From Escherichia coli (GTDB lineage: Bacteria; Pseudomonadota; Gammaproteobacteria; Enterobacterales; Enterobacteriaceae), in NCBI RefSeq assembly GCF_003334405.1, contig NZ_QOWM01000003.1: DNA of 64,000 nucleotides. One strand, 5' to 3'. A model generated the notes under the pieces. The model made no database searches. It was not told the origin of the DNA and saw only the letters and a program-made list of their open reading frames with translations. Made by a program: the position numbers and the translations under genes. Shown piece by piece: positions 45,067 to 45,098 of the stretch (its first letter is position 1; each line of letters opens with the position of its first letter).

Positions 45067-45098
45067 TGTAAAACGCAGATTATTATCTGTGTTTTACA
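45067..45098. promoter_or_regulatory. 12-8-12 palindrome upstream of ydjL (candidate operator)
   Basis: TGTAAAACGCAG-ATTATTAT-CTGTGTTTTACA, one mismatch between the arms, 10 bp upstream of a TTGACC -35-like hexamer and about 80 bp upstream of the ydjL start. Confidence 0.35.

Follow-up and report, generated by a model that had tools for sequence, protein, structure and literature searches.

The closest described counterparts of the promoter region analysed here are the operators of other DeoR-family regulators of Escherichia coli. GlpR acts at tandem operators of glpD and glpTQ/glpACB, for which a 20-bp tandem architecture was reportedly described by the Larson laboratory, and the consensus of a glp operator is WATGTTCGWT.AWCGAACATW. 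The operators of DeoR at deoP1 and deoP2, promoters shared with CRP and CytR, are single 16-bp palindromes over the -10 hexamer, which cooperate by long-range looping. DeoR-family repressors commonly pair with CRP and respond to phosphorylated intermediates, and most members of the family are repressors (PMC12632272). In the E. coli DHAP-shunt operon, the cluster-encoded DeoR-family repressor MtnR (YjhU) is paired with CRP at a promoter with a proposed semi-palindromic operator (PMC12632272).

The ydj cluster of E. coli is an orphan sugar-acid pathway, the enzymes of which prefer an octuluronate, a compound without known natural abundance (PMC9602453). In a screen of E. coli promoters, that of its first gene, ydjL, ranked among the most consistent sensors of the 'healthy gut'; it was silent in culture and became active in the gut of mice, and its regulation was called uncharacterised (PMC6561318). 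No report of a binding site or of binding data for YdjF, the DeoR-type protein encoded by the cluster, was found in the literature searched. The putative operator sites set out below were previously unmapped, and their arrangement is conventional for a sugar operon of the DeoR family. As at the glp promoters, a DeoR/GlpR-family regulator is associated with dyad units of about 20 bp that lie in phase (suggesting cooperative occupancy) and, at ydj, would overlap the core promoter, under co-control by cAMP-CRP (PMC12632272 for CRP and GlpR). However, the putative ydj operator, with the ideal form ATCTGTG-AAA-CACAGAT, differs from the glp consensus, and one unit (A) is inverted in Enterobacterales relative to the other two (B and C), which creates a long palindrome. 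With the deo promoters the locus shares the regulator family, palindromic operators and a CRP-dependent promoter under a pathway-specific repressor (proposed in the case of ydj), but the ydj units are adjacent, at 20-21 bp, and extend from about -80 to -21. The likeness to the DHAP-shunt operon lies in a cluster-encoded repressor (a candidate in the case of ydj), CRP activation and a semi-palindrome at the promoter as the proposed operator, whereas the geometry differs: the proposed MtnR site is over the -10 hexamer with CRP in a class II position (-35.5), and the putative ydj array spans the -35 hexamer and the DNA upstream of it, with a class-I-like CRP position at about -81.5.

The window (the whole stretch of E. 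coli DNA that was analysed, 64 kb) was compared with the RefSeq annotation of an identical E. coli record, which confirmed the locus as msrB-yeaC, a 369-bp spacer, ydjLKJIHG, ydjF and ydjE, all on the + strand. The yeaC gene ends at 44807 and the ATG of ydjL is at 45177; the palindrome that is the subject of this analysis is in the spacer, 79 bp before the ATG. The features of the ydjL promoter region are as follows.

45052-45073, no strand assigned: CRP-type site, core TGTGA-TCTGAG-TTGTA at 45055-45070, overlapping unit A
45064-45080, + strand: unit A, a putative operator, AGTTGTAAAACGCAGAT, a degenerate copy identical at 14 of 17 positions to unit B on the other strand
45085-45101, - strand: unit B, the core putative operator, ATCTGTAAAACACAGAT, with a dyad of its own (ATCTGT-N5-ACAGAT), ending 6 bp upstream of the -35 hexamer
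45106-45122, - strand: unit C, a putative operator, GATTTTTGAGGTCAACA, overlapping both the -35 hexamer and the initial 9 bp of the promoter spacer
45108-45113, + strand: -35 hexamer TTGACC, with TTGA invariant and the following C present in at least 90% of sequences
45131-45136, + strand: presumed -10 hexamer AAGTAT, after a 17-bp spacer, matching the consensus at 3 of 6 positions and assigned from the conservation pattern
45177-46253, + strand: ydjL, the first gene of ydjLKJIHG

Positions 45067-45098 read exactly TGTAAAACGCAG / ATTATTAT / CTGTGTTTTACA, and the 12-nt arms pair at 11 of 12 positions. With a single mismatch, the arms can be lengthened to 14 nt (45067-45080 and 45085-45098; 93% complementary), which leaves a loop of 4 nt; in K-12 MG1655 the arms are identical and one base of the loop is changed (ATCATTAT). 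A degenerate pattern of this palindrome has one match in the 64-kb window against 0.00 expected from 100 dinucleotide shuffles. When up to one mismatch and a spacer of up to 12 nt were allowed, the window contained palindromes with 14-nt arms at three places only (12016-12048, 41727-41765 and 45067-45098), the mean of mononucleotide shuffles being 0.1. At the looser level of 12-nt arms there are 10 loci in the window against 1.4 expected, several of them directly 3' of genes or between genes, the places where terminators are expected. The palindrome at 41727-41765 sits between the convergent genes yeaE and yeaD, where a two-way terminator would be expected. The preliminary description of this DNA had reported a near-perfect 12-8-12 palindrome followed 10 bp later by TTGACC; the palindrome is real, exact to the letter and more than chance would give, and the distance is essentially right, the hexamer beginning after 9 nt.

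Relatives of YdjL were found at 23 Enterobacterales loci and at some 20 loci from Firmicutes, Actinobacteria and Negativicutes. Upstream of ydjL, the 23 Enterobacterales sequences can be aligned well over about 125 bp, with invariant or nearly invariant blocks at TGTGATC (45055-45061), most of the palindrome region, TTGAC (45108-45112), the TCAAA of the promoter spacer and the AAGTAT-type -10 hexamer. Conservation in other genera begins at about 45050 and accompanies ydjL also where another gene is upstream, and the upstream neighbour of ydjL in Citrobacter is a divergent gene; thus, the conserved block belongs to ydjL and not to yeaC. In Citrobacter youngae, two - strand ORFs that are both absent from E. 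coli are inserted between yeaC and ydjL (locus positions 7013-8731): one of 426 aa which, from its translation, we take to resemble a family-18 glycosyl hydrolase (chitinase-like), and one of 137 aa with an HNH-like motif.

Outside Escherichia the arms read TGTGAAATGCAGAT / ATCTGTGTTTTAAA and are about 10/14 complementary as DNA. In Symbiopectobacterium, Enterobacillus and Serratia the left arm differs and the right arm is a perfect small dyad, ATCTGTG-TTT-CACAGAT. Because the dyad of the right arm is kept where the left arm differs, the conserved element is a unit of about 17 bp rather than a long inverted repeat. On comparison of the sequences, the functional unit is a putative dyad operator of about 17 bp that is repeated every 20-21 bp, and the palindrome is not one predicted operator but combines unit A with the greater part of unit B; its length is explained by the near-identity of these two units on opposite strands. 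The earlier proposal of a 12-8-12 operator is thus upheld as to the likely presence of an operator before the ydjL promoter, and replaced as to its anatomy. When the arms were scanned in other enterobacterial ydj loci, the block was found to be conserved across Enterobacterales, with near-perfect symmetry in Escherichia only.

The symmetry of the Escherichia sequence raises the question of a function in RNA, namely an intrinsic terminator that stops or insulates read-through from msrB-yeaC. The + strand RNA of the palindrome folds into a hairpin of 15 pairs (-18.3 kcal/mol, z = -5.6), in which the arm mismatch becomes a G.U pair on this strand only, the - strand folding at -14.0 kcal/mol; a consensus scan calls the palindrome terminator-like, and no other + strand site downstream of yeaC is so called. 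However, just 4 of the 15 pairs are G-C, the tail (AUUUAAUGUU) is an interrupted U-run, and a search of Rfam gave no covariance-model match at E <= 1 in 44700-45300. Pairing among the 23 Enterobacterales is 84.6% and the covariation score is 0.126, both at the level of shuffled controls, with a single compensatory cell. The stability of the hairpin is not conserved, being -7.6 kcal/mol (z = -0.75) in Citrobacter youngae, and Symbiopectobacterium and Enterobacillus have lost the long stem and kept unit B. Since the upstream gene of Citrobacter is divergent, there is nothing to terminate there, and termination of the upstream gene was rejected as the conserved function for this reason. A terminator is therefore an unlikely explanation of the element, although the hairpin could have a second function that is specific to Escherichia.

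A sequence motif was learned in distant phyla, from 12 non-enterobacterial ydjL upstream regions only, by a MEME-like search with one occurrence per sequence and a width of 17. The motif obtained de novo, AATCT[T/G]TGAAAnnnA[C/G]A, was used as a PWM to scan both strands of the 64-kb window (about 128,000 positions). The match of rank 1 is the right arm of the palindrome plus four bases (45086-45102, - strand, AATCTGTAAAACACAGA, 19.9 bits), and that of rank 2 is just upstream of the ydjF promoter (51564-51580, AATCTGTGATTCAAACA, 19.7 bits); the highest score elsewhere in the window is 13.8 bits. Not one of 1000 column-permuted PWMs put both top matches in the two ydj promoters, and 12 of 1000 did so for the top match alone. 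Across 21 enterobacterial loci of about 19 kb each, the top match was unit B in 18 and the ydjF promoter in the other 3. Within the window and the loci scanned, the motif is thus specific to the two ydj promoters across phyla. The features of the second of these promoters, and of the gene that it precedes, are as follows.

51565-51581, + strand: strong putative operator unit upstream of ydjF, ATCTGTGATTCAAACAG, PWM rank 2 (as the 17-mer 51564-51580), conserved in Enterobacterales
51584-51600, + strand: weaker unit at the ydjF promoter, 20 bp downstream and overlapping the -35 hexamer, with a rank (24) that is confounded by resemblance to the -35 hexamer
51588-51593 and 51611-51616, + strand: ydjF promoter, -35 hexamer TTGAAA and -10 hexamer GATAAT
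51655-52413, + strand: ydjF, encoding the proposed binder, annotated as a member of the DeoR/GlpR family

The strong unit at ydjF ends 6 bp before the -35 hexamer, which is the geometry of unit B at ydjL. The ydjF promoter (TTGAAA-17-GATAAT) is listed among the RpoD constitutive promoters, with RNA polymerase alone (PMC3946193), and ydjF is in the target list of a CRP genomic-SELEX study (PMC3105977). A CRP-like sequence, TGTGA-TGAAAA-TCTGT at 51556-51571, matches the CRP consensus at 7 of 10 positions and overlaps the operator unit of ydjF; its first TGTGA is not conserved outside Escherichia. This sequence may explain the presence of ydjF in the genomic-SELEX list.

The units at ydjL are held in fixed register with the promoter. 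Measured from the first base of the -35 hexamer, unit B is fixed at -22 on the - strand, with 20-22 bits in most Enterobacterales. Unit A, the centre of which is 21 bp from that of unit B, is fixed at -45 in most of the 23 Enterobacterales regions, with 5-10 bits (16 in Serratia), and in E. coli it is a weak match to the PWM (rank 124-274 of about 128,000). Unit C is 20 bp in phase with unit B and is also weak in E. coli (8 bits, rank 36 of about 128,000); it is fixed at -2 with 5-21 bits in 19 of the 23 regions, the exceptions being three that score below 5 bits and that of Enterobacillus, where the only match is on the opposite strand, at -5. This third, weaker unit includes the TTGACC hexamer, and the TCAAA of the promoter spacer is unusually conserved. 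Outside the Enterobacterales the units are arranged in tandem as direct repeats, mostly at a spacing of 20-21 bp, and the series often runs as far as the -35 hexamer. Because their centres are 20-21 bp apart, the units lie on one face of the helix. A possible fourth unit, TTTCTGCGTAATTGTGA at 45043-45059, was rejected, as it scores 3 bits and its TTCTGCG part is not conserved outside Escherichia.

The genes that accompany the motif point to YdjF as its binder. Among the Firmicute and Actinobacterial loci from which the motif was learned, most of those that are long enough also carry a YdjF-like DeoR regulator. A YdjF-like DeoR gene (40-56% identity) was found in 14 distant loci, the remainder being mostly short contigs that end before the expected position; by tblastn, ydjL, ydjJ, ydjI, ydjH and ydjG are syntenic in distant Firmicute and Actinobacterial loci, and YdjF-like genes are syntenic with ydj genes in Enterobacterales too. 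The amino acid identity of YdjL between E. coli and the Firmicute, Actinobacterial and Negativicute genomes is 76-85%, and the products of the neighbouring genes are far less conserved in the distant phyla (YdjK about 52%, YdjF 40-56%). This difference points to transfer of the cluster across phyla or to unusually strong constraint on YdjL. YdjF matches the models of GlpR, AgaR, FucR and SrlR, its best NCBIfam match being the GlpR model at a score below the cut-off of that model. Comparison of recognition helices is uninformative as to specificity, because the DeoR recognition helix, TEETIRRDL, is a signature conserved throughout the family. YdjF had been named in the preliminary description as a candidate binder, beside a global regulator; the comparative motif evidence supports it as probably the binder, at sites whose anatomy is revised as above.

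A different protein, be it another DeoR paralogue or a regulator that is global or specific to enterobacteria, is an improbable occupant of these sites. The recognition helix is near-identical among the DeoR-family proteins of E. coli, of which there are about 13, the assignment of site to protein is made here by comparative genomics, and the arms contain hexamers like the half-boxes of TyrR. On the other hand, the motif is common to Firmicute and Actinobacterial clusters in which the conserved regulator is a YdjF-like protein, and it also marks the promoter of ydjF itself, which speaks against another binder. The outer hexamers of the palindrome, TGTAAA (45067-45072) and TTTACA (45093-45098), are exactly those of the TyrR box TGTAAA-N6-TTTACA, but a TyrR box was rejected: the hexamers are 20 bp apart rather than 6, and other genera read TGTGAA / TTTAAA. 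A LexA box was rejected on the polarity of the central CAGAT-N4-ATCTG, which is opposite to that of LexA, nor does the palindrome as such agree with the consensus for CRP; both points were judged directly from the sequence.

A CRP-type site is nevertheless adjacent. The preliminary description was correct that the palindrome itself does not match CRP, but a CRP-type half-site, TGTGATC, is located 6 bp upstream, with a 22-bp footprint that overlaps the left arm. Compared with TGTGA-N6-TCACA, the core of this site agrees at 7 of 10 positions: the left half and the TC after it are perfect, and the right half agrees at 2 of 5. There are 193 such weak sites in the window. TGTGA and the C two bases further on are invariant in all 23 Enterobacterales, with the T between them present in at least 90%, and the TGTGATC half-site is the most conserved element of the upstream region. 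Transcription of ydjL would start at about 45143-45144, a presumed start on which all promoter-relative positions given here depend; the centre of the CRP-type site, 45062.5, corresponds to about -81.5, one of the class I positions (-61.5, -71.5, -81.5 and -92.5), only if the start at 45144 holds. In one report, ydjLKJIHG is among the novel operons for which the promoter bound CRP in EMSA, and it is classed as 'Crp activated' by expression (PMC8085971).

Taken together, these observations are best accounted for, with a probability of roughly 70%, by a reading in which three YdjF units form a phased array, with the palindrome as its upstream two-thirds, and through this array YdjF would repress ydjLKJIHG, compete with CRP and regulate its own gene. 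The centres of the units would be at about -72, -51 and -30 from the presumed start, and the array would extend from about -80 to -21. Unit B would be the high-affinity anchor, unit C would cover the -35 hexamer, and unit A would overlap the promoter-proximal half of a class-I-type CRP site near -81.5. Without inducer, an oligomer of YdjF might fill the array cooperatively, blocking the contact of sigma-70 with the -35 hexamer and competing with CRP, and the operon would be off. The inducer is presumably a phosphorylated intermediate of the pathway produced by the YdjH kinase, by analogy with other DeoR-family repressors. With inducer bound, YdjF would leave, and cAMP-CRP could then activate a promoter whose -35 hexamer is good and whose -10 hexamer is weak. 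The matching unit placed identically upstream of the -35 hexamer of ydjF suggests that YdjF may be autoregulated. Because the strongest unit is upstream of the -35 hexamer, repression would have to come from unit C, which is weaker, or from anti-activation; the weak match of unit A to the cross-phylum motif and the weakness of unit C in E. coli are points against the array. The array model fits the behaviour of the ydjL promoter in culture and in the mouse gut (PMC6561318), as well as the usual pairing of DeoR-family repressors with CRP and their response to phosphorylated intermediates (PMC12632272).

That YdjF binds the same array as an activator, in the manner of FucR, is improbable, slightly more so than the terminator or a different binder. 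In favour of this reading are the position of the strongest unit, the centre of which (about -51) is upstream of the core promoter, the weak -10 hexamer, and the place of FucR among the nearest NCBIfam relatives of YdjF. However, the -35 sequence TTGAC is near-consensus and almost invariant, and the putative third unit is placed over it. Activation is already supplied by CRP, according to the report cited above (PMC8085971), and most members of the DeoR family repress (PMC12632272). A matching unit also precedes the ydjF promoter, for which constitutive activity with RNA polymerase alone is reported (PMC3946193).

A functionless chance palindrome in AT-rich intergenic DNA is very improbable. 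By chance, 64 kb should hold 1-2 palindromes with 12-nt arms and a single mismatch, but for 14-nt arms the expectation falls to 0.1 per window; the block is shared by the Enterobacterales, and the right arm matches the cross-phylum motif at rank 1 of about 128,000 positions.

Under the repressor reading, the defined putative operator, the candidate repressor and the CRP-type site together offer a handle on both the substrate and the regulation of the ydj pathway. Operator mutants and a deletion of ydjF could separate specific induction from catabolite control, YdjF with unit B could serve in the search for the inducer among gut metabolites, the design of gut biosensors could benefit, and the cross-phylum motif allows regulons to be predicted in gut Firmicutes that carry the ydj cluster. 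A more extended scenario, unlikely to hold in full, would be that the operator grammar travelled across phyla with the cluster and its regulator and was rearranged in the process; that the tandem direct repeats of Firmicutes and Actinobacteria contrast with Enterobacterales, where the distal unit became inverted and merged with a CRP half-site, so that YdjF both covers the -35 hexamer and evicts CRP; and that in Escherichia the pair of units was sharpened into a hairpin of 18 kcal/mol that terminates or insulates msrB-yeaC, giving one 32-bp element that is repressor site, anti-activator site and terminator.

The distribution of the region within E. coli was also examined. It is present in about 4,325 of 5,426 complete E. 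coli genomes, with a few polymorphisms in and around the arms, and the yeaC-ydjL spacer is without a match in about 1,100 of the 5,426; thus, the ydj region is accessory, in agreement with its reported uneven distribution among phylogroups (PMC9602453). The 89-bp promoter core of the window is found at an identity of at least 99% in only 164 E. coli genomes, and the window therefore carries a minority allele. The upstream two-thirds of the spacer (44808-44990) have no detectable counterpart in other genera or in Escherichia sp. E1V33, and the possibility that the spacer is a remnant of the genes found there in other genera was rejected, as there is no similarity. Within this part of the spacer, a stretch of 16 nt is directly repeated (44896-44911 and 44954-44969), and the stop codon of yeaC is immediately followed by a hairpin (44815-44822 with 44838-44845).

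Two further sequences related to the operator unit were noted near the start of the operon. Just 5' of the Shine-Dalgarno sequence of ydjL, AAACACAGA at 45158-45166 is the right half of an operator unit and is complementary to 45086-45094. Inside ydjL, TTTCTGTACAACACAGA at 45485-45501 on the - strand is the PWM match of rank 25, the conservation of which is confounded by the coding sequence. These two sequences could be auxiliary operator sites or chance matches.
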